Notes under the pieces: generated by a model
The model's database searches: none
What the model saw: the letters and a program-made list of their open reading frames with translations, nothing else
What the model was told of the DNA's origin: nothing
Made by a program: the position numbers and the translations under genes
In this document: positions 2,981 through 56,926 of the stretch, piece after piece
How the letters are laid out: each line of letters starts with the position of its first letter
How positions within the stretch are numbered: the first letter of the stretch is position 1
Assembly: GCA_021734165.1 (NCBI GenBank)
Contig: JAIPJL010000005.1
Span: forward strand, 130-64,129
Direction: 5' to 3'
Length of the DNA stretch: 64,000 nucleotides
Origin: a bacterium
Lineage (GTDB): Bacteria; Electryoneota; AABM5-125-24; Hatepunaeales; Hatepunaeaceae

Positions 2981-4313
2981 AATAAATACACAGACACAGC
3001 CACAGCCTCCAAAAGGCTGGCGTTCCTATTCCAGCGATAAGTTAGCGCTTCGTAATGTTTTGTTGATAGATCCGGCTCAGAATCTTAAGAAACGAGCGGA
3101 TTTGATTATCGAAAACGGAATCATTCAGCAGATTGGTGAGATTACGGATGGTTGGGATGGGGAAATAATTGATGGAAGCAAACTGATTGCCTGTCCGGGT
3201 CTTTTCGATATGCACGTGCACCTGAGGGAACCTGGATATGAGCATAAAGAAACCATTTACAGTGGTTGTCATGCTGCAGCATCAGGTGGTTTCACTGGCG
3301 TAGCGCCTATGCCAAATACTGATCCGGCAATAGACAACCCTGGACTCGTGAATATATTACGTGAGAAAGCTGTGGGATTTCCGGTAGAAGTTCATCCCAT
3401 TGCAGCAATTACTCTCGGCAGAAAGGGTAAGAATCTATCTGAGATCGGTGAGTTAGTCGATACGGGGGTAATGGTTTTCTCAGACGATGGTTCACCTATA
3501 GTGATTGCGGATCTTATGCGTCGGGCGCTTGAATATACTAATATGTTCGGAGCGACTATAAGTGAGCATAGCGAAGATGCTTCCTTAACCATGGGTGGAG
3601 TCATGCATGAAGGCGCAGTTTCAACAAGGTTAGGGCTGCCTGGCTGGCCTGGAATTGGTGAAGAGATTGCCATTGACCGCAATGTTCGTCTTGCTGAATT
3701 TACTGGCGGAAAGCTCCACATTGCCCACATTTCAACCGCTGCGTCATTGGAAATAATCAGGCGCGCTAAAAAGAATGGAATCAATGTAACAGCAGAAGTG
3801 ACGCCTCATCATTTAACTCTAGATTGTAGTCTGCTTGATGGTTTCGATAGTAATTACAAGGTTAATCCACCTCTTCGCACTAAAGAAGATGTTATTGCTC
3901 TTCAGGAAGGTTTGGCGGATGGTTCAATCGATGTTATTGCGACCGATCATGCTCCGCACGCGCCTGATGAGAAAGAAGTTGAATTTATCAAGGCTCCCTT
4001 TGGCATGATCGGACTTGAGACAGCTCTTGGAATTATTCACTCAAAACTTGTATTAACCGGAAAGCTCACCATCGAAAGAATGATCGAAGCAATGACTTCC
4101 GCGCCAAGAAAAGTGATGGGATTAAGTGATGTGAGTATTAAAGCTGGCGAGACAGCTAATCTGACATTATTCAATCCTGATGAAAAATGGCGAGTGGATA
4201 GAGATTTGTTTAATTCCAAATCAAAAAATACTCCTTTCCATGGCATGGAATTAACCGGAAGAGCAGTCGGAGTGATCAATCGTGGATTGGTTTGGATTAA
4301 AGATGAGAAGTAA
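2973..4313 (+). CDS. pyrC: Dihydroorotase
   Basis: DMHVHLREPG, KVNPPLR, ATDHAPH. Confidence 0.96.
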   Translation: MNKINTQTQPQPPKGWRSYSSDKLALRNVLLIDPAQNLKKRADLIIENGIIQQIGEITDGWDGEIIDGSKLIACPGLFDMHVHLREPGYEHKETIYSGCHAAASGGFTGVAPMPNTDPAIDNPGLVNILREKAVGFPVEVHPIAAITLGRKGKNLSEIGELVDTGVMVFSDDGSPIVIADLMRRALEYTNMFGATISEHSEDASLTMGGVMHEGAVSTRLGLPGWPGIGEEIAIDRNVRLAEFTGGKLHIAHISTAASLEIIRRAKKNGINVTAEVTPHHLTLDCSLLDGFDSNYKVNPPLRTKEDVIALQEGLADGSIDVIATDHAPHAPDEKEVEFIKAPFGMIGLETALGIIHSKLVLTGKLTIERMIEAMTSAPRKVMGLSDVSIKAGETANLTLFNPDEKWRVDRDLFNSKSKNTPFHGMELTGRAVGVINRGLVWIKDEK

Positions 4314-48928: not shown

Positions 48929-49861
48929 ATGGAAACTTACGGAAACGAATCACTGCGCGAGGCTTTTGGAAAAGCTTTAATTGATGCCGGTAAAATCTGG
49001 AATAACCTTGTTGTACTCGACGCCGGTACGAAGAATTCCACCTACAGTCAGAAATTTCAGGAAGTATTCCCTGACAGGTTTTACACGCCCGGTATTAACG
49101 AACCCGGAATGGTCGGAGCAGCAACCGGAATGGCTATGGCTGGCAAGCGGGTAGTTGCCTGTGATATGTCGGTATTTTTGCATCATGCCTACGCTCAGAT
49201 AAGAGCTGCCGCGAGGCAGGGAAGTGACATGCACATGATTATAGCAGCCACTCATACAGGCGTAGCCGTTGGTCCTGATGGTGGATCTGCCCATGATCTG
49301 ACAGATCTGGCGAGGATGAGATTAGTAGCTGGGTTTAATGTCATTACTCCGTGGGATGGTCGTCAGATAAGAAGCGTTCTTCAGGTAATACTTGAAGAGA
49401 AGGGACTGTACTATGTCAGGCTCAACCGCCCTAAAGTACCCCTGTTTTTACCCGAACCGGCTCCCTTTGAACTCGGAAAAGCATACAAACTTTCTGAGGG
49501 CGAACGGGTCACTATTATCGCCGTCGGTGACAAGGTCTATAACGCACTTATCGCGTCGGAGGAATTGGGTAAAGGTTTCGCTGATGTGATTGGAGTATCC
49601 ACTCTTGAGCCGTTAGATTCAGACACTATTATTGCTTCAGCGAAAAAGACCGGTAAAGTAATAACTGTAGAAGATCACTTATACATTGGTGGTTTATTTG
49701 AAGCAGTGGCTGGAGTGTTAGTGCAGCATCATCCAACACCGATGCGTCGCATTGCCCTTGACAGGATTTTCACCACATCCGGTGATCCTGATGAACTGGC
49801 TGAGATTTACGGTGTGAACACAGCAGCGATTGTCAGGATGTGTAAGGAGTTTGTGGGATAG
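48929..49861 (+). CDS. Transketolase, C-terminal subunit
   Basis: GINEPGMVG.A.G, GPDGGSAH, ITVEDH. Confidence 0.88.
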   Translation: METYGNESLREAFGKALIDAGKIWNNLVVLDAGTKNSTYSQKFQEVFPDRFYTPGINEPGMVGAATGMAMAGKRVVACDMSVFLHHAYAQIRAAARQGSDMHMIIAATHTGVAVGPDGGSAHDLTDLARMRLVAGFNVITPWDGRQIRSVLQVILEEKGLYYVRLNRPKVPLFLPEPAPFELGKAYKLSEGERVTIIAVGDKVYNALIASEELGKGFADVIGVSTLEPLDSDTIIASAKKTGKVITVEDHLYIGGLFEAVAGVLVQHHPTPMRRIALDRIFTTSGDPDELAEIYGVNTAAIVRMCKEFVG

Positions 49862-49884
49862 GATATAAAGAATGTGATAGTCAC

Positions 49885-49984
49885 GTAGGGGCCGATTTAT
49901 CGAGCCCATTGGAAGATGGGGCTCAGCAAGCTGGCCCCTACGCGTAAGGTTATTTAGAGTGCTGTCAGGCATCCTCGCCTGACA
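49885..49984. repeat. GTAG-type REP pair plus a TCCT-loop hairpin
   Basis: gtaggggcc...ggcccctac (49885-49941); gagtgctgtcaggc-atcctc-gcctgaca (49957-49984). Confidence 0.72.
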
Positions 49985-50018
49985 CGTTAGTCCTTTAAAA
50001 TATCGTGAAAAGGCGACC

Positions 50019-50996
50019 ATGCCCAACCTACTTGAAGTAAGAGACCTGTGTACGTATTTTCACTCCGACGACGGCGTTGCCAAAGCCGTTGACGGGGTGT
50101 CGTTCAACGTTGAAGCCGGAAAGACGCTCGGAATTGTCGGTGAGTCCGGCTGCGGGAAGACCGTGAGCTGCCTCAGCGTTTTGCGGTTGATACAGATTCC
50201 ACCGGGTGAGATCGCAAGCGGTGAAGTCATTTTCAACGGCGTCGATCTGCTGAAGCTGCCAGAAAGCGAAATGCGTCACATCCGCGGTAACGATATAGCC
50301 ATGATCTTCCAGGAACCGATGACGTCGCTCAATCCGGTGTTTACCTGCGGAGATCAGGTGGTCGAAGCCGTCATGCTTCACCAGGATGCATCCTCAGATG
50401 ACGCCCGTGAAAAGGCGCTTGAGATGTTCAAACTGGTTGGCATTCCCGATCCTGAGCGGCGGCTTGACGAGTACCCGCATCAGCTCTCTGGAGGACTCCG
50501 GCAGCGGGTGATGATTGCAATGGCTTTGTCATGTCATCCCAAGCTGCTGATCTGCGACGAACCGACGACCGCGCTGGACGTCACCATACAGGCGCAGATA
50601 CTGGAGTTGCTGAAAGACCTACAGAAGCGACTTGGCATGGCGATTATCATGATCACGCATGACCTGGGTGTGGTGGCTGAAACCTGCGACAGGGTGGTGG
50701 TTATGTACGCCGGCAAGGTCGCTGAAACGGGTGACGCAAGCTCGATCTTCCACCGACCGCAGCATCCGTATTCGATTGGACTGCAGCACGCCATTCCCAA
50801 GATGGGCGTCCGCAAAGAGAAACTGCATCAGATCGAAGGCGTCGTTCCCAATCCGCTTGACTTTCCACCCGGCTGCAAGTTCCATCCCCGCTGCCCGATT
50901 GCGGACGACAGATGCAAGACTGAAGAACCTGTCCTTAAAGGACACAGCGGAGGGAATCAGGTTGCCTGCTGGAAGGCGGGAGAGTTTAAGCTTTAG
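50019..50996 (+). CDS. Peptide ABC transporter ATPase (OppD/DppD-like), no partners nearby
   Basis: [24 protein letters not shown]-terminal GCKFHPRC. Confidence 0.92.
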
Positions 50997-51045
50997 GGAA
51001 TTTTGAATTTTGGATTTTGGATGATGAGCAGTACTAACAGTAGGG

Positions 51046-51069
51046 GTGGGGCAGACATTCTTGTCTGCC
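51046..51069. repeat. REP-like hairpin
   Basis: gtgg tail + ggcagaca-ttct-tgtctgcc. Confidence 0.65.
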
Positions 51070-51094
51070 GAATATCAATGCCCGCGTAGTCAAT

Positions 51095-51174
51095 GTAGCC
51101 CGGATTTCCCAAATCCGGGGATCCAGATTTCTTTAATAATCCCGGCTTGCCTTCAAGCCGGGCTACGAAACTAA
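51095..51174 (-). repeat. ~80-bp REPIN-like unit, copy 1 (inverted)
   Basis: rc = ttagtttcgtagcccggcttgaaggcaagccgggattattaaagaaatctggatccccggatttgggaaatccgggctac. Confidence 0.85.
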
Positions 51175-51184
51175 GGAGGACGAA

Positions 51185-52405
51185 ATGACGGAAGAACTAA
51201 AAAATCCTATCACTATCGTTGCAAATAGGGAAATTGCGGAAAATAGCGATGTTCTAGGTCTACTATCGTTAATCCGACCAGAATGGCAAGCGAAGAATCT
51301 CATCCAGCGAGTAATCAACCTACTTCCGGTTGATCCTAGTAGTGCGTGTCAACGCTTATTTAATGCAGCGATTCACGATCTGAAGAAGAAGATACTCGTT
51401 GCAGGAATTGACATTGCTAAGGAAGCGGCGGAAGCAAACAGACTACCACAAGTCAACAGAGCAGAAGATATCGATGATTATAACGTATCTAAAACAATCG
51501 ATTTGGCCTACTATATGGGACTCTTGACAAGGCCTGAATGGCGTAGAATCACTAGAGTATATGACATCAGACGTGACCTTGAACACGAAGACGATGAGTA
51601 TGAGGCAACTATCGAAGACTGTTTCTATATCTTTAAGACATCTATAGAATCTGTGTTGGCTAAAGACCCGGTTGAAGTATTGAGGCTTCTTGACATAAAG
51701 GAAATAGTTGAACAGTCGACTGCAATAACTCTTGATCAAACCCTTAGAGACGAGTACGCTGTCGCTCGAACTGTACGGCAAGTTGAAATTTACAAGTTTC
51801 TTATTTCAACAGCAATTGACAGCAAGCAGCCAGATATTGTACGACAGAACTGTTATATAGCGTTGGGCATCCTGAGTCCCCTGACTAAAGACAACGTGAA
51901 GATCGAGGTTTCTCAAGTATACTCAGACAAAGTCAAAAGAAAGGGTTTAGACACCTTTACAGCGCGTGTTGCGAATACGGCTGGCATTCTTCCTTACTTT
52001 AAAAAGAGCGTTCTCAAGACATACTATTCCAACTTTCTTGCTTATATGAAGAAAGTAGGCTATGATTTCCGCTCCCATGCTAAACATGGGGAATTGTTAC
52101 GAGATTTTAAAGAGTTTGGGGGACTGGATCATTGTCCAAACGATATCATCCCTGACATCGTCGAGTGGCTTGCATTATGCTACATCGGTGAAAAGAGCTT
52201 TGGGCAGTACTCATCGATCCGAAAAGTGTTTTGCTCCAACACAGGAGCACCCCTTGCTAAGGAAATACTTATGGAGTCGAAGTCCCGTATTGGTCCTGTC
52301 TTGCAGCATGTAATTAATTCCAGCAAGATCATTAAAGCTGAATGTAAGTGGCAATATTGTGCCAGACGAGCACAGGATTTACTTGACAATTGCACCGCGG
52401 CTTGA
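51185..52405 (+). CDS. Hypothetical protein with HEPN-like Rx4H motif and helical C terminus
   Basis: Strong RBS aaggagg; IDLAYYMGLL...VYDIRRDLEH (R129-x4-H134). Confidence 0.6.
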   Translation: MTEELKNPITIVANREIAENSDVLGLLSLIRPEWQAKNLIQRVINLLPVDPSSACQRLFNAAIHDLKKKILVAGIDIAKEAAEANRLPQVNRAEDIDDYNVSKTIDLAYYMGLLTRPEWRRITRVYDIRRDLEHEDDEYEATIEDCFYIFKTSIESVLAKDPVEVLRLLDIKEIVEQSTAITLDQTLRDEYAVARTVRQVEIYKFLISTAIDSKQPDIVRQNCYIALGILSPLTKDNVKIEVSQVYSDKVKRKGLDTFTARVANTAGILPYFKKSVLKTYYSNFLAYMKKVGYDFRSHAKHGELLRDFKEFGGLDHCPNDIIPDIVEWLALCYIGEKSFGQYSSIRKVFCSNTGAPLAKEILMESKSRIGPVLQHVINSSKIIKAECKWQYCARRAQDLLDNCTAA

Positions 52406-52428
52406 GCCACAATCCAATAATATAGTGT

Positions 52429-52510
52429 TTAGTATCGTAGCCCGGCTTGCCCTCAAGCCGGGATTAAAATATTGTAATCTGGATTCCAAGATTTGGGAAA
52501 TCCTGGCTAC
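52429..52510 (+). repeat. ~80-bp REPIN-like unit, copy 2
   Basis: ttagtatcgtagcccggcttgccctcaagccgggatt...aatctggattccaagatttgggaaatcctggctac. Confidence 0.85.
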
Positions 52511-52626
52511 TTAACTTATGGTCTCTGAGATGGTTTGTAAAGGAGGGAGAGGCGCCCCGGAGGTTTCAGAGACCAGTAAACAATTTATATAAGTTAAACA
52601 CAAAAGTCAATAAGGGAACTAACAGC

Positions 52627-53127
52627 ATGAAACAATCAATAATCGTAGTACTATTGTTATTAACAGCCATGATTGAAGTAGCAGACGCACAATGGCTTTA
52701 CCAGACAGGCACTGATCCTTTTGACGATTCTGTTACGCACGTTATTTATACAGTGACATTCGATGAAGTTCCCGGGTCGCTGTATGTAAGACGAAAAGGC
52801 TCCATGTTAGAGATATTCATTCTCACGTTATCTACTTATATTGGAACCAACAATTGTGACCTGGTACCTGCAGAGTGGAGGTTCGACAAGAGGGAAAGCA
52901 AATCCCTTTGGTGGTTCCCCTCTACCTGCAAGAAAGGTGCCTTTCTGTATAACGAAGACTACAAGCTCATCTTCTTACAGAACATGAAGGAGTGTAACAC
53001 GCTCATCATAAGATTTACTAAACATGATGGTGGCACGGTAACAATGCGCTTTTCCCTGGCAGGTTTCACAGCAATGTACAATAAGTACATTGGGGAATCT
53101 GTAAAAACCAGCCCTCCATCAGAATGA
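52627..53127 (+). CDS. Small secreted hypothetical protein (weak VasI/TagO-like pattern)
   Basis: Signal peptide ending ADA-Q; WLYQTGTDPFDDS; C-terminal MRFSLAGF. Confidence 0.6.
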   Translation: MKQSIIVVLLLLTAMIEVADAQWLYQTGTDPFDDSVTHVIYTVTFDEVPGSLYVRRKGSMLEIFILTLSTYIGTNNCDLVPAEWRFDKRESKSLWWFPSTCKKGAFLYNEDYKLIFLQNMKECNTLIIRFTKHDGGTVTMRFSLAGFTAMYNKYIGESVKTSPPSE

Positions 53128-53174
53128 TAATTTTGCTGTTTTAACAAGAAGTAAATTTGGGTATAGCAGCTATT

Positions 53175-53254
53175 TTAGTTTCGTAGCCCGGTATGCCCTC
53201 ATGCCGGGATTATGATAGAAATCTGGATACCCGGATTTGGGAAATCCAGACCAC
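53175..53254 (+). repeat. ~80-bp REPIN-like unit, copy 3
   Basis: ttagtttcgtagcccggtatgccctcatgccgggattatgatagaaatctggatacccggatttgggaaatccagaccac. Confidence 0.85.
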
Positions 53255-53476
53255 ATTCTCACCACCGGCTTTCGCTGGTGGCTATTGCACAACGTTCCCG
53301 AGTATAAAAATCTAACTGAACTTGAAAATTACTTGAGATTAGATTCAAGGCAATTTTGGGTAGATCACCATCGAAATGATACAATACATAAGGAGAAATC
53401 ATTGGTTGTTTATTATATTGTGTTAGGTCTTGGGCTTTAGGACGCACTGACAGATAACAATAAAAGAAGAAACCAA

Positions 53477-54388
53477 ATGAAAATACAAACATTTTTCGCA
53501 TCTCTGAGAGCGCCGTTTTTCACTGCGGTGATAATCCCTGTCATACTCGGCAGCGTGCTCGCCTGGCATCATGGTTCGACATTCCACTGGGGGCTCTTTT
53601 TTATCACGCTCTTCGGTGCGATTGCGCTTCATGCGGGAGCTAATACCATCAACGACTACTTTGACCACCTCAGCAATAACGACGCTGTCAACGATGAGTT
53701 CATCCGACCGTTCACGGGTGGCAGCAGGCTGATTCAGAATGGGGATCTGACGCCGAGAGGCATGCTGACGATTTCGATTTCTACCTATATGATCGGCGTC
53801 ATTATCGGGCTGTACCTGACTTATTTAAGAGGCATGACGATATTCTGGATCGGGCTGATCGGAGTGGCTTGCGGGGTGCTGTATGTTGCGCCCGGTATCA
53901 ACCTCGCAAAGCGTGGTTTCGGTGAGTTTGCAATTGCGCTGGCGTTCGGGTTGTGCTGTGTGAGTGGAGCGTATTACGTGCAGGCTCAGACCTTGAGCTT
54001 CGAGGTGATCTTTGCATCGCTGCCGGTAGCTATGCTGATCTTGCTGGTGCTGTTTATAAACCAATTCCCTGATTATAACGCGGACAAGGCGGTGGGAAAA
54101 ACGCACTGGGTGGTCAGGATGGGCAGGAAGAAGGCGTCGGTCAGCTATGCGACGATGATGATTATAACTTATGCTTTGATCATTGCGCTGGCTCTTATTT
54201 ACGGTAAATTCTGGCTGCTGGTCGGGCTGGCAACCGCTCCGATAGCGATCAAAGCGGTGCGGAATGCGCTGGTGAACTACGACGATGTGAAGGAGCTTTT
54301 CCCGTCATGCGCAGGTACGATCATGACTCACATGTTCACGGGGCTGCTGCTGACGTCAGGGTATGTTTTGCAGACGCTGTTAAGCTAA
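53477..54388 (+). CDS. menA: 1,4-dihydroxy-2-naphthoate prenyltransferase (UbiA family)
   Basis: NTINDYFD, FTGGSR, INQFPDYNADKAVGKT, many TMs. Confidence 0.85.
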   Translation: MKIQTFFASLRAPFFTAVIIPVILGSVLAWHHGSTFHWGLFFITLFGAIALHAGANTINDYFDHLSNNDAVNDEFIRPFTGGSRLIQNGDLTPRGMLTISISTYMIGVIIGLYLTYLRGMTIFWIGLIGVACGVLYVAPGINLAKRGFGEFAIALAFGLCCVSGAYYVQAQTLSFEVIFASLPVAMLILLVLFINQFPDYNADKAVGKTHWVVRMGRKKASVSYATMMIITYALIIALALIYGKFWLLVGLATAPIAIKAVRNALVNYDDVKELFPSCAGTIMTHMFTGLLLTSGYVLQTLLS

Positions 54389-54410
54389 TTTCCCAAATCA
54401 AGTTGAAGCT

Positions 54411-54469
54411 AACCACAGAGGCACAAAGACACAAAGAAAAATTCTCTGTGCCTCTGTGTCTCTGTGGTT
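54411..54469. repeat. Inverted ACACAGAG-type repeat element
   Basis: aaccacagaggcacaaagacacaaag ... ctctgtgcctctgtgtctctgtggtt; a left half also occurs at 16206. Confidence 0.8.
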
Positions 54470-54481
54470 TTTGTTTTTAAG

Positions 54482-56926
54482 ATGCCCAATCCCCCTGAAA
54501 TAACACTTGCTGAAGTGCAGTTCGGTGACACTCCGGCGGGAGGTTATACTTACCGTATTCCGGATGAATTGAACATCACATGCGCCGGAATCCGTGTCAG
54601 AGCTCCTTTTGGTATGCAGCGGCGGGTGGGCATACTGACCAGCATCTACAAAGGGCAGGATCGAGCTCACTACCGCAACATTGCCGAACCTATAGACATC
54701 ACACCCCTGATCTCACCTGAGATACTCGAACTTACCAAGTGGATTGCTGAATACTATCTCTGTGAATGGGGGGAGGCATTATCATCAGCCATACCACGCG
54801 GTCTAAAACCGACAGGCAAACGCAAATATATCCTGACCGAGCTTGGATTATCTGAACCCTTCCTATCCGAAGAGACCGGACCAGCAGGACAGCTTTGGCG
54901 TGACCTCCGAAAATCACCGTTGACCTTCGCTCAAATTAACAGACGCTTTCCACGAGGAACCCTTTTAATTGAGAAATTCAAACAGCATGGATGGATTGAG
55001 CAGATAGAAATTGAGGTGCGTCGCTCGGTTCAAAACATGATCACAGAATGGCGCTGGAATGATGAACAGGATTATGCTGATGTATTAGAGAAAATGCCAC
55101 AGCGATCAAAGAAATTAAGGCGCGGTGTCGAGATTCTTAGGGATAATACCGGCAGGATTACCGCCAAAGAACTTAGCGCTATTGAGCCGGGTATGAGCCA
55201 GATCATGACAAATTTGGTGAAGAAAGGCTGGATTTTATCATCTCAGGTTCCCGCGCACATGCTTAGCAGTCTGCAAACCGGAATGGAAGAGACAGCGGTA
55301 AACTCAATTGTTCTTTCAACCGCACAGAAGACTATTGTTGAAAAAATCGAGAAGTCGCTGCAGTCTGGTAAATATCAGTCATTTTTACTACATGGAGTCA
55401 CAGGTTCCGGCAAAACTATCGTATATCTTGAAGCGGTTGCGAAAGCATTGGAACTTGGAGGATCTGCGATAGTGATGGTGCCGGAGATTTCGCTGACGCC
55501 ACAGTTAACCGGACGTTTCAGACGAAAATTCGGATCGGATGTGGTGGTAACGCACAGCGGTCTCTCTGAGGCTGAGAGACGTGAAGCATGGAACCTGGCA
55601 AGAACCGGCAAAGCAAAGGTGATGGTGGGACCTCGTTCGGTGGTGTTTACTCCGCTCGATAATATTAAACTGATCATTGTCGATGAGGAGCACGACGACA
55701 GCTATAAACAGGCGGATCCGGCGCCGAGGTACAACGGCAGGGATGTAGCTCTTTATAGGGGATTCAAATCAGGCGCGACAGTAATTCTCGGATCGGCGAC
55801 GCCTGATATTATAAGTTACAGCAATGCGAGAAGAGATAGATACGAACTGCTCGAATTAAAAGAGCGTCATGGTGAAGGAAACCTGCCGGATGTCTGGGTT
55901 GTCAAATGGAGTCCGAGCGAAAGAGCAGGATGCTTCAGCCCGAAGCTAAAGAAAAGATTAGAGGAAGTCGTTGAGCGCGGTGAGCAGGCTATTCTACTGA
56001 TCAACCGCCGCGGTTTTTCGACGATTATTCGCTGTCCTGAATGCGGAAGTGTTGCCAAATGCCCGAACTGTGACATTACTTTACGCTATCACCGCGACAG
56101 GCAGTTAATAGAATGCCATTATTGCGGGCATAACCAAAAACCGCTTGACACATGTCCAAGTTGTCGAAGCCAGAGACTGATTTACGGAGGTATTGGAACA
56201 CAACGCGTCCAACGGGAGTTAGAATTATATCTGCCGAAGGCGCGTGTGATACGGATGGATCAGGATACTACGCACGGCAAAGGCGCTCATCAGAATATAT
56301 TGGCAGATTTTGCAGTGCATAAGTACGATATACTCCTTGGAACGCAGATGGTTGCCAAGGGGCATGATTTTCCCAACGTAACACTGGTTGGGATACTGCT
56401 CGCTGACATGGAATGGTGGAGATCGGATTTCAGGGCTAATGAACGTGCGTACAGGCTCCTGTCTCAGGCGGCAGGCAGGACGGGACGCGCGGGTGGGGGA
56501 GAGGTTGTTATTCAGGCACTTGAAGCTGAAAATCCTTTGCTGCGCTGGGTTCAGAAGCATGATTATAATGAGTTGTTCAATTCCGAGGTTGATGATCGAA
56601 AAGGTCTGGATTATCCACCTTATAGTAAATTGGTTGCGATATTGCTAAAATCCGAAGATGCTGTTATGGTTGATAAAGCTGCCAATGAGCTTAAAGAAAC
56701 ACTTGATTACAGTCTTGCAGGTTGCAAAATATTAGGACCGGCGCCACCTCAGATTGAACGGCTTGAGAAATTCTATCGACGCAGGTTATTGATTAAAATT
56801 CCCTTGGCAAGTAAAAACTCGGTCAGAACTAAAAACTCTATCAAAGAGATGGTTCAGGAGCTTGAAAAGCAATATCAGAATCGAAAGTTAAGGTTTATAG
56901 TTGACGTTGATCCGGTTGATGTGTAA
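54482..56926 (+). CDS. priA: Primosomal protein N'
   Basis: GVTGSGKT, VPEISLTPQ, DEEH, four CxxC pairs, GTQMVAKGHDFP, DVDP; ATG 54482 chosen because the GTG at 54464 lies in the repeat. Confidence 0.96.
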   Translation: MPNPPEITLAEVQFGDTPAGGYTYRIPDELNITCAGIRVRAPFGMQRRVGILTSIYKGQDRAHYRNIAEPIDITPLISPEILELTKWIAEYYLCEWGEALSSAIPRGLKPTGKRKYILTELGLSEPFLSEETGPAGQLWRDLRKSPLTFAQINRRFPRGTLLIEKFKQHGWIEQIEIEVRRSVQNMITEWRWNDEQDYADVLEKMPQRSKKLRRGVEILRDNTGRITAKELSAIEPGMSQIMTNLVKKGWILSSQVPAHMLSSLQTGMEETAVNSIVLSTAQKTIVEKIEKSLQSGKYQSFLLHGVTGSGKTIVYLEAVAKALELGGSAIVMVPEISLTPQLTGRFRRKFGSDVVVTHSGLSEAERREAWNLARTGKAKVMVGPRSVVFTPLDNIKLIIVDEEHDDSYKQADPAPRYNGRDVALYRGFKSGATVILGSATPDIISYSNARRDRYELLELKERHGEGNLPDVWVVKWSPSERAGCFSPKLKKRLEEVVERGEQAILLINRRGFSTIIRCPECGSVAKCPNCDITLRYHRDRQLIECHYCGHNQKPLDTCPSCRSQRLIYGGIGTQRVQRELELYLPKARVIRMDQDTTHGKGAHQNILADFAVHKYDILLGTQMVAKGHDFPNVTLVGILLADMEWWRSDFRANERAYRLLSQAAGRTGRAGGGEVVIQALEAENPLLRWVQKHDYNELFNSEVDDRKGLDYPPYSKLVAILLKSEDAVMVDKAANELKETLDYSLAGCKILGPAPPQIERLEKFYRRRLLIKIPLASKNSVRTKNSIKEMVQELEKQYQNRKLRFIVDVDPVDV

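Follow-up and report, generated by a model that had tools for sequence, protein, structure and literature searches.

An islet of two accessory genes, bounded by three copies of a repeat unit of about 80 nt, was analyzed in a window of 64,000 nucleotides (G000:C61:130-64129) from a draft bacterial genome (3.40 Mb, 169 contigs, 86% complete, 42% G+C). The units belong to a GTAG family of repetitive extragenic palindromes (REPs) that is associated with a REP-associated tyrosine transposase (RAYT). This assignment, proposed in the initial annotation, was borne out by a RAYT gene flanked by the same REPs in the related genome G012 and by its truncated orthologue on contig C160 of the present genome. 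Each unit is a head-to-head heterodimer, resembling a bacterial interspersed mosaic element (BIME) or a REP doublet of the REPIN type, in which two different hairpins lie inverse to each other with the GTAG feet on the outside. We consider it probable (about 0.7) that the arrangement arose by ordinary REP/BIME colonization of new intergenic gaps, accompanied by local spread of the repeats.

Structure of the three REP units

Sequence comparison and repeat search recovered the three related units at 51095-51174 (unit 1, minus strand, inverted, reading hairpin B, linker, hairpin A, tail), 52429-52510 (unit 2, plus strand) and 53175-53254 (unit 3, plus strand), and the previously described layout of unit, gene 1, unit, gene 2 and unit, with the first copy inverted, was confirmed. 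In an alignment of the three units with their flanks, the mean column identity was 80%. Each unit comprises a TTAGTWTC tail, hairpin A (GTAG-CCCGGCTTG-loop-CAAGCCGGG), an A/T-rich linker of about 20 nt, and the inverted hairpin B (CCGGATTTGGGAAATCCGGG-CTAC). The stems are 9 bp long and G+C-rich, the GTAG feet point outwards in the doublet, and halves A and B are about 75% alike. A GTAG foot had been assigned to every hairpin, which holds for five of the six hairpins in the islet and fails for hairpin B of unit 3, which has GTGG instead. Unit 2 has a degenerate hairpin B, and the stem of hairpin A in unit 3 is preserved by a compensatory T-A to A-T swap.

Folded as single-stranded DNA, the units reached -13.9 to -21 kcal/mol (z -3.1 to -6.0 against shuffled sequences), with unit 1 at -21 kcal/mol and z -6.0. 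Units 1 and 3 fold with their halves as separate hairpins, and unit 2 shows additional pairing of the outer GTAGCC and GGCTAC ends. The RNA folds likewise contain stable hairpins (z -2.4 to -4.8), and the flank of unit 3 contributes one more. Rfam returned no family for 50900-53600 when E values up to 1 were admitted. A sigma-70 promoter scan returned 6 sites against a shuffle mean of 5.3, in a lineage that may use other promoters. The tail of unit 1 runs into the ribosome-binding site of gene 1 (CTAAGGAGGACGAA-ATG, 51171-51187), exactly as had been noted before. In the same unit (51137-51174), hairpin A carries a loop that is reverse-complementary to those of units 2 and 3, with the orientation of the tail unchanged, which suggests that the core of the palindrome may have been flipped.

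Contigs of four sequencing runs were placed on 49500-55000; such contigs drop rare variants. The Logan contigs of X1 and X2, the probable source runs, matched without differences, and they break off and resume within hairpin A of unit 2 (52436-52464). With no contig of these two runs bridging unit 2, it is the original assembly that joins gene 1 to gene 2.

The REP family and its transposase

A profile of the whole unit detected related copies on other contigs with E values of 1e-11 to 1e-7. Profiles of the two halves gave 16 A and 15 B matches, which merged to 24 loci on 17 contigs of the 3.4-Mb genome, a low copy number for a REP family. The profiles identified six of the loci as doublets, and inspection by eye added a seventh (C129); in all of them the GTAG feet point outwards. 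Most copies across the genome have GTAG. Twenty-three of the 24 loci lie downstream of a gene 3' end and the remaining one lies between divergent genes; 22 are outside any open reading frame of at least 80 aa, and the other two fall within short, doubtful frames. In a simulation of 24 loci, for which the number of gaps was assumed to be 3000, a run of three filled gaps had P = 0.0015 and at least three adjacent pairs had P = 0.00075. Together with the profile matches elsewhere, the simulation indicates that the units exceed chance.

The neighbors of the REP loci were characterized by a Pfam scan of 33 proteins. Housekeeping genes adjoin 9 of the 21 loci outside the islet and encode FtsX, a sigma-54 regulator, ArgJ, DeaD, RsgA, an S49 peptidase, an antiporter subunit (two loci), and ribonucleotide reductase. 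Restriction-modification, transposase or RAYT genes adjoin 5 of the 21, and several other loci lie beside surface proteins with sorting tails of the type IX secretion system (T9SS). The units are not confined to accessory neighbors, as they also stand beside ribonucleotide reductase, which was matched in 15 of 15 genomes of the family, and around C111 they occur within a syntenic pair of regulator genes that is adjacent in G011 too. The REP family was also found in G012, G015 and G006, which represent other genera of the same bacterial family, and one doublet of G012 is 88% identical to unit 2. In G012 the REP loci (six regions) show ordinary intergenic scatter with no bracketed cargo, and one doublet is about 800 bp from an Eco57I-type methylase gene.

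Two further gene sets of the present genome are bracketed by copies of the family. At C22 (G000:C22:4335-6161; L103:1336-3162), two direct A-type REPs enclose a pair consisting of a DNA methylase and a BglII-like endonuclease, beside a conserved deaD; in relatives, the methylase and deaD are on different contigs. At C7, two B hairpins that are identical over 53 nt (G000:C7:158-272 and 3790-3901) stand around a T9SS gene of 1011 aa. Both C7 copies are devoid of hairpin A, and tandem GTTTCGTR 8-mers, corresponding to the A tail, directly adjoin the linker, as though the hairpin had been excised beside GTAG. A different repeat of about 100-140 nt was observed at C111 (L098:49-188; G000:C111:34548-34687), with copies of 86-95% identity on 17 other contigs, several of them at contig ends. 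It has many copies in G002, G004, G012 and G014 and is a likely cause of assembly breaks.

The window holds no RAYT gene, in agreement with the initial annotation; the three Y1_Tnp matches of the genome are on C127, C26 and C160. Those on C127 (89.3 bits) and C26 (88.8 bits) are intact RAYTs (cut-off 80), each bordered by inversely oriented copies of a different hairpin repeat of its own. The C160 match covers profile positions 2-88 of 146 only and has A-type REPs with an enlarged loop on both sides. Its reading frame meets a REP copy after KRRMNY and ends soon after, without the C-terminal YIHxNP tyrosine region. In G012 (contig C381), an open RAYT frame of 251 aa contains HSHII and YIHFNP and lies between GTAGCCCGGCTTCTCCGAAGCCGGGG REPs; the C160 fragment shares 66% identity with it across 89 aa. 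A RAYT flanked by the same REPs, which the initial annotation had proposed to look for, is therefore present in G012, and this RAYT with its REPs (a REPtron), together with the C160 orthologue, identifies the matching transposase of the family. In the 86%-complete assembly analyzed here, the matching RAYT is a remnant.

Several additional features of the RAYT loci were recorded. A REP doublet is translated in frame after KRRMNY at the same RAYT codon position in two genera (L209:1362-1500, corresponding to G012:C381, and L003:1400-1500, corresponding to C160); in G012 the 251-aa frame continues uninterrupted across the doublet. The repeats flanking the RAYT loci are at L001:1282-1390 and 1889-1948, L002:1242-1270 and 1815-1873, and L003:1205-1290 and 1786-1839. 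Since each of the three loci has its own distinct hairpin type, the genome holds three separate REPtrons. The RAYT profile gave seven matches each in G012 and G015, two of those in G012 being halves of one gene. Beside the intact RAYT on C127, a gene of 287 aa on the minus strand (L001:1962-2825) contains an R-x4-H stretch, RSRIVHG, found by eye, and matches no NCBIfam family; possibly it is a further HEPN-like gene next to a REPtron.

The accessory islet between oppD and menA

The islet is flanked on the left by a conserved gene for an oppD-type ABC transporter ATPase (50019-50996, plus strand; Pfam ABC_tran 2.4e-28, oligo_HPY 2.2e-19) and on the right by a conserved gene for a UbiA/MenA-type prenyltransferase (menA; 53477-54388, plus strand; Pfam UbiA 7.1e-33), which is followed by priA. 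Unit 1 begins 98 nt past the oppD stop codon, unit 2 begins 23 nt past that of gene 1, and unit 3 begins 47 nt past that of gene 2. The distances from the units to the next gene are 10 nt (unit 1 to gene 1), 116 nt (unit 2 to gene 2) and 222 nt (unit 3 to menA). The G+C content of genes 1 and 2 is 42%, equal to the genome mean, and that of oppD and menA is 56% and 52%, respectively.

The oppD-menA interval was compared in seven relatives with both genes on one contig, comprising three of three GTDB relatives (G006, G007, G011) and four of four metagenome contigs (L122, L124, L130, L132); oppD is 70-75% identical at the DNA level in relatives of the family. The gap between the two genes is 50-460 bp in all seven, and neither the A and B profiles nor the unit profile found a copy in any of these gaps. 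In G007, G011, L122, L124, L130 and L132, the gaps are 240-460 bp long and packed with other small hairpin repeats. When the relatives' spacers were aligned to that of the present genome, alignment was limited to the beginning of menA and short repeat matches; the spacers are too diverged for the insertion breakpoints to be placed. Protein searches of 78 other genomes of the phylum (56-100% complete) found gene 1 in none and gene 2 in none. The adjacency of oppD and menA in the seven relatives and the absence of both genes from the genomes searched bear out the initial suggestion that the genes delimited by the units are lineage-specific accessory genes.

Two small hairpin repeats distinct in type from the REP units adjoin the islet. 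The first, of the GGCAGACATTCTTGTCTGCC type (51045-51069), was identified by blastn and by DNA comparison with relatives; it has 15 further copies of 90-100% identity on 13 other contigs of the genome (blastn), and near-identical copies are present in relatives including G006 and G036. The second, of the CCACCGGCTTTCGCTGGTGG type (53262-53291), constitutes a third kind of hairpin at the locus. It forms a separate hairpin in the fold and has three further copies in the genome (90-92% identity).

Gene 1 (51185-52405, plus strand) encodes a protein of 406 aa whose N-terminal domain is HEPN-like and whose C-terminal domain consists of helical repeats. At the thresholds used, Pfam, NCBIfam and PADLOC assigned it to no family, and it matched nothing in a phage collection. 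In the Protein Atlas it falls into clusters labeled 'hypothetical protein', one of which carries PF27235 on 10% of its members. A total of 1370 homologues were found at E 0.001 or better, up to 80% identical and in other phyla. Those of 70-80% identity come from records labeled Geobacter, Pelotomaculum, Thermodesulfobacteriota and Pirellulales, and more distant ones are spread over many phyla and also include Methanophagales archaea. A plasmid search found four Streptomyces plasmids with homologues of 46-47% identity.

Arg129 and His134 of gene 1 are invariant in 22 of 22 aligned homologues, within the stretch YDIRxDLEHED (R-x4-H). A Foldseek search of the AlphaFold model (pLDDT 83.3) against the PDB gave nothing at E 0.001 or better. 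Residues 30-165 of the model match the HEPN entries 2hsb, 1wwp, 8oz7, 1jog and 8xdj with Z of 8.0-8.8 and a root-mean-square deviation of 3.4-3.7 over 108-115 residues, a match that is suggestive only, as Z under about 13 in helical proteins can reflect a common arrangement. The matched HEPN set includes AF_0298, TTHB-type proteins, the AbiA HEPN domain and HEPN toxins, and the remainder of gene 1 matches helical repeats. The earlier label of a HEPN-motif gene is thus reasonable, given the conserved R-x4-H and the HEPN-like N-terminal domain of the model, and the product of gene 1 is probably a defense nuclease.

The genomic context of the gene 1 family was examined at 80 loci elsewhere (649,107 bases). 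No partner gene is conserved across these loci, the largest cluster of similar neighbors having five members. Among 70 neighbors scanned, there were several Mrr, HNH, NucS and REase-ARP nucleases, recombinases, relaxases, integrases and AAA ATPases. In a metagenome-assembled Rhodobacterales contig (L040, 4001-5179), a gene 1 homologue stands alone between rplW and rplB, as a single-gene insertion into a core operon. The lack of conserved neighbors and the spread over phyla indicate that gene 1 is self-contained and often transferred.

Gene 2 (52627-53127, plus strand) encodes a protein of 166 aa whose N-terminus, MKQSIIVVLLLLTAMIEVADA, is signal-peptide-like as read from the translation. Two other homologues were found; a match to IalB was weak and below the cut-off (E 0.0029), and PADLOC and NCBIfam gave nothing. 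The structural model was unusable (pLDDT 43.6, from an alignment of three rows). The genome contains numerous T9SS sorting domains, which is consistent with a bacterium of the Fibrobacterota-Chlorobiota-Bacteroidota (FCB) group.

Origin of the arrangement and relation to known systems

If the REP family colonized new gaps, a two-gene islet, made up of a HEPN-like gene that moved between phyla and a gene for a small secreted protein, would have inserted between oppD and menA. The insertion would have created new permissive gaps, and REP doublets would then have occupied each of them, probably by short-range copying from a neighboring copy. Such elements would be spread by a RAYT (TnpA-REP) acting on single-stranded hairpins, and REPs would persist in harmless positions just past genes. 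In a nearest-relative test, the C7 pair was 100% identical and the C104 pair 92% identical, the partners being mutually closest in each case, which fits short-range copying. When transcribed, the units would most likely be 3' hairpins that stabilize or partly terminate the upstream message. Both their position 23-98 nt past stop codons and the stability of their RNA hairpins are consistent with the 3'-end roles that the available portion of the literature lists for REPs.

Several observations weigh against this explanation. The islet units do not form an exclusive clade: half A of unit 2 has its nearest relative on C78 (0.92), and half B of unit 1 is nearest to the C7 copies (0.94), so the test does not demonstrate local copying at the islet itself. 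The three REP-bracketed gene sets other than the RAYT fragment (the islet, C22 and C7) all look accessory, which pure colonization does not predict. Recently acquired islands in Pseudomonas Pf-5 reportedly lack REPs, and the islet is full of them. A terminator scan flagged one weak site in the units, in hairpin B of unit 1. The use of repeat sequences to identify recently acquired islands in the Pf-5 genome is described in the part of PMC7416659 that was available.

A REP doublet may instead have been in the oppD-menA spacer beforehand, with foreign DNA integrating at or beside it and the other copies arising during or after that event. REPs are targets of some insertion sequences and sites of rearrangement. 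The repeat-rich spacers of the relatives mark the interval as a hotspot, three different hairpin families adjoin the islet, and accessory genes lie beside REPs at C22 and C9. Nevertheless, the REP family is in none of the seven relatives' spacers and the breakpoints cannot be placed, and we regard such a landing site as unlikely.

A second possibility is that the islet was imported together with its REP doublets from a related organism carrying the same REP family, by homologous recombination in the flanking core genes. The REP family is common to at least four genera of the bacterial family, and genes 1 and 2 differ from oppD and menA in G+C content as given above. In X3, a run of a different study, contigs are 94% identical to the 3' end of gene 2 and about 87% identical to core genes, and they hardly cover gene 1. 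A 360-letter contig of this run matches 52452-52591 with one difference, and its other 220 letters match nowhere on 49500-55000; the relative in X3 (roughly 87% core-gene identity) matches 140 nt of unit 2 and its downstream flank at 99% identity. Yet the absence of either gene from the 78 phylum genomes leaves no donor in hand, and the nearest relatives of gene 1 are in other phyla. Import of the whole block appears quite unlikely.

The initial annotation had proposed that the units may act as recombination or mobilization sites for single-gene cassettes, which was not supported. According to this model, a circle consisting of a unit and a gene would recombine with a chromosomal unit, either by RAYT cleavage and strand transfer at the GTAG feet or by host recombination, leaving genes between direct copies of the unit. 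Units 2 and 3 are indeed direct repeats around gene 2, as are the A copies around the C22 pair, identical B copies surround one C7 gene, and both islet genes are lineage-specific. In addition, TnpA-REP cuts and rejoins single-stranded REP DNA in vitro, according to the accessible part of PMC8266576, and the X3 contig diverges inside unit 2. This contig could mean that a relative has a genuine breakpoint within unit 2, or it could be a repeat path in the assembly graph.

Against mobilization of this kind, the unit profile and the word GTAGCCCGG had no match at any of the 80 loci of gene 1 relatives, which shows that the units do not travel with gene 1; a long repeat on both sides of the gene was seen at one of these loci (L071). 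Units 1 and 2 have opposite orientations, so that a simple recombination event joining the two would invert gene 1, not excise it. The islet copies are 80-89% alike and not near-identical, as they would be after fresh integration, and none of the 15 joints listed for the contigs of the four runs on 49500-55000 connects unit to unit. The matching RAYT in the assembly is truncated and lacks the catalytic C-terminal part. Phage_integrase matches were confined to C4, C92 and C128, and the contig of the window has no site-specific tyrosine recombinase and no RAYT. A search of the literature on RAYT passenger genes, cargo, REPtrons and REP-flanked islands retrieved no report of REP-flanked cargo being mobilized. 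The feet of a head-to-head doublet are symmetric, so that any gene enclosed by two doublets resembles a RAYT between REPs, and by the same symmetry the inversion of unit 1 has no special meaning. With units also standing beside core genes, mobilization of single genes as REP-mediated cassettes is very unlikely.

The broader notion that REP doublets serve as portable hairpin sites for the capture and exchange of individual accessory genes, often those for defense, by RAYT or by copy-copy recombination, in a cassette-like manner without an integrase, would if true explain the bracketed HEPN gene, restriction-modification pair and surface-protein gene as well as the divergence of X3 inside unit 2, and is as improbable as the cassettes themselves.

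Colonization by a REP family accords with what is described for REPs in other bacteria. GTAG REPs form head-to-head heterodimers with linkers of 20-100 bp and lie after co-directional or convergent genes, according to the portion of PMC3733652 at hand, and the corresponding portion of PMC8266576 defines BIMEs and describes TnpA-REP cleavage beside GTAG. As in the REP/BIME and TnpA-REP system of Escherichia coli (the REPtron of Ton-Hoang and colleagues; PMC8266576, as far as the available text goes), the present repeats are GTAG-footed imperfect palindromes of two inverse types with a short linker, they lie in intergenic positions past genes, and a Y1 HUH transposase gene is flanked by the same REPs. 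Unlike the E. coli REPs, they have other hairpin sequences, with perfect 9-bp helices and no AA/GC bulge, and they number 24 loci, compared with the 'about six hundred' REPs given for strain K12 in the accessible text of PMC8266576. Further, the host here is an uncultured FCB-group bacterium, its matching RAYT is broken, and the RAYT gene itself has an in-frame REP doublet.

The REPIN-RAYT system of Pseudomonas (Bertels and Rainey; PMC3116915, PMC3337134), as presented in the portions available, shares with the present family the inverted-REP doublet as unit, singlets that resemble decayed doublets, a single-copy RAYT flanked by its REPs, and a separate REP type for each of several RAYTs. Unlike Pseudomonas REPINs, the present doublets have halves that are only about three-quarters alike, they mostly form two separate hairpins and not one long one, and their copies are 75-92% identical. 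The heterodimers described by Di Nocera et al. 2013 in the accessible part of PMC3733652 also have outward GTAG termini, partners 20-100 bp apart and some copies translated inside open reading frames; neither the present REP family nor its host lineage is among those that this part describes. Integron attC cassettes resemble the islet in having a folded single-strand hairpin site after each co-oriented, promoter-poor gene. In contrast to integrons, integrase, attI and Pc promoter are absent here, the sites occur genome-wide beside core genes, unit 1, which precedes gene 1, is inverted, and the analysis gave no evidence of excision.

Gene 1 resembles HEPN defense and toxin proteins, namely the AbiA HEPN domain, HEPN-MNT toxins and HepS, in its invariant R-x4-H and in an N-terminal helical domain that superposes on theirs (Z 7.2-8.8), and the neighbors of its homologues are often restriction enzymes and mobile-element genes. 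It differs from these HEPN systems in matching no sequence family, in having no conserved partner such as an MNT antitoxin, and in its helical-repeat C-terminal domain of 240 aa; here it is known from its sequence and a model.

The very large, highly conserved and unnamed gene 1 family, with its HEPN-like domain, moves between phyla as a single gene. This movement, together with the restriction and mobile-element neighbors, makes the family a good candidate for a new defense gene. To our knowledge, a role of REPs in gene flow has long been suspected and never shown; single-gene cassettes, if real, would give them such a role. As interpreted here, the islet provides a well-documented REP-RAYT system in an uncultured FCB-group lineage and shows repeats filling the gaps of newly gained DNA. 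This is of use in annotation and serves as a caution that assemblies of this genome break at REP repeats.

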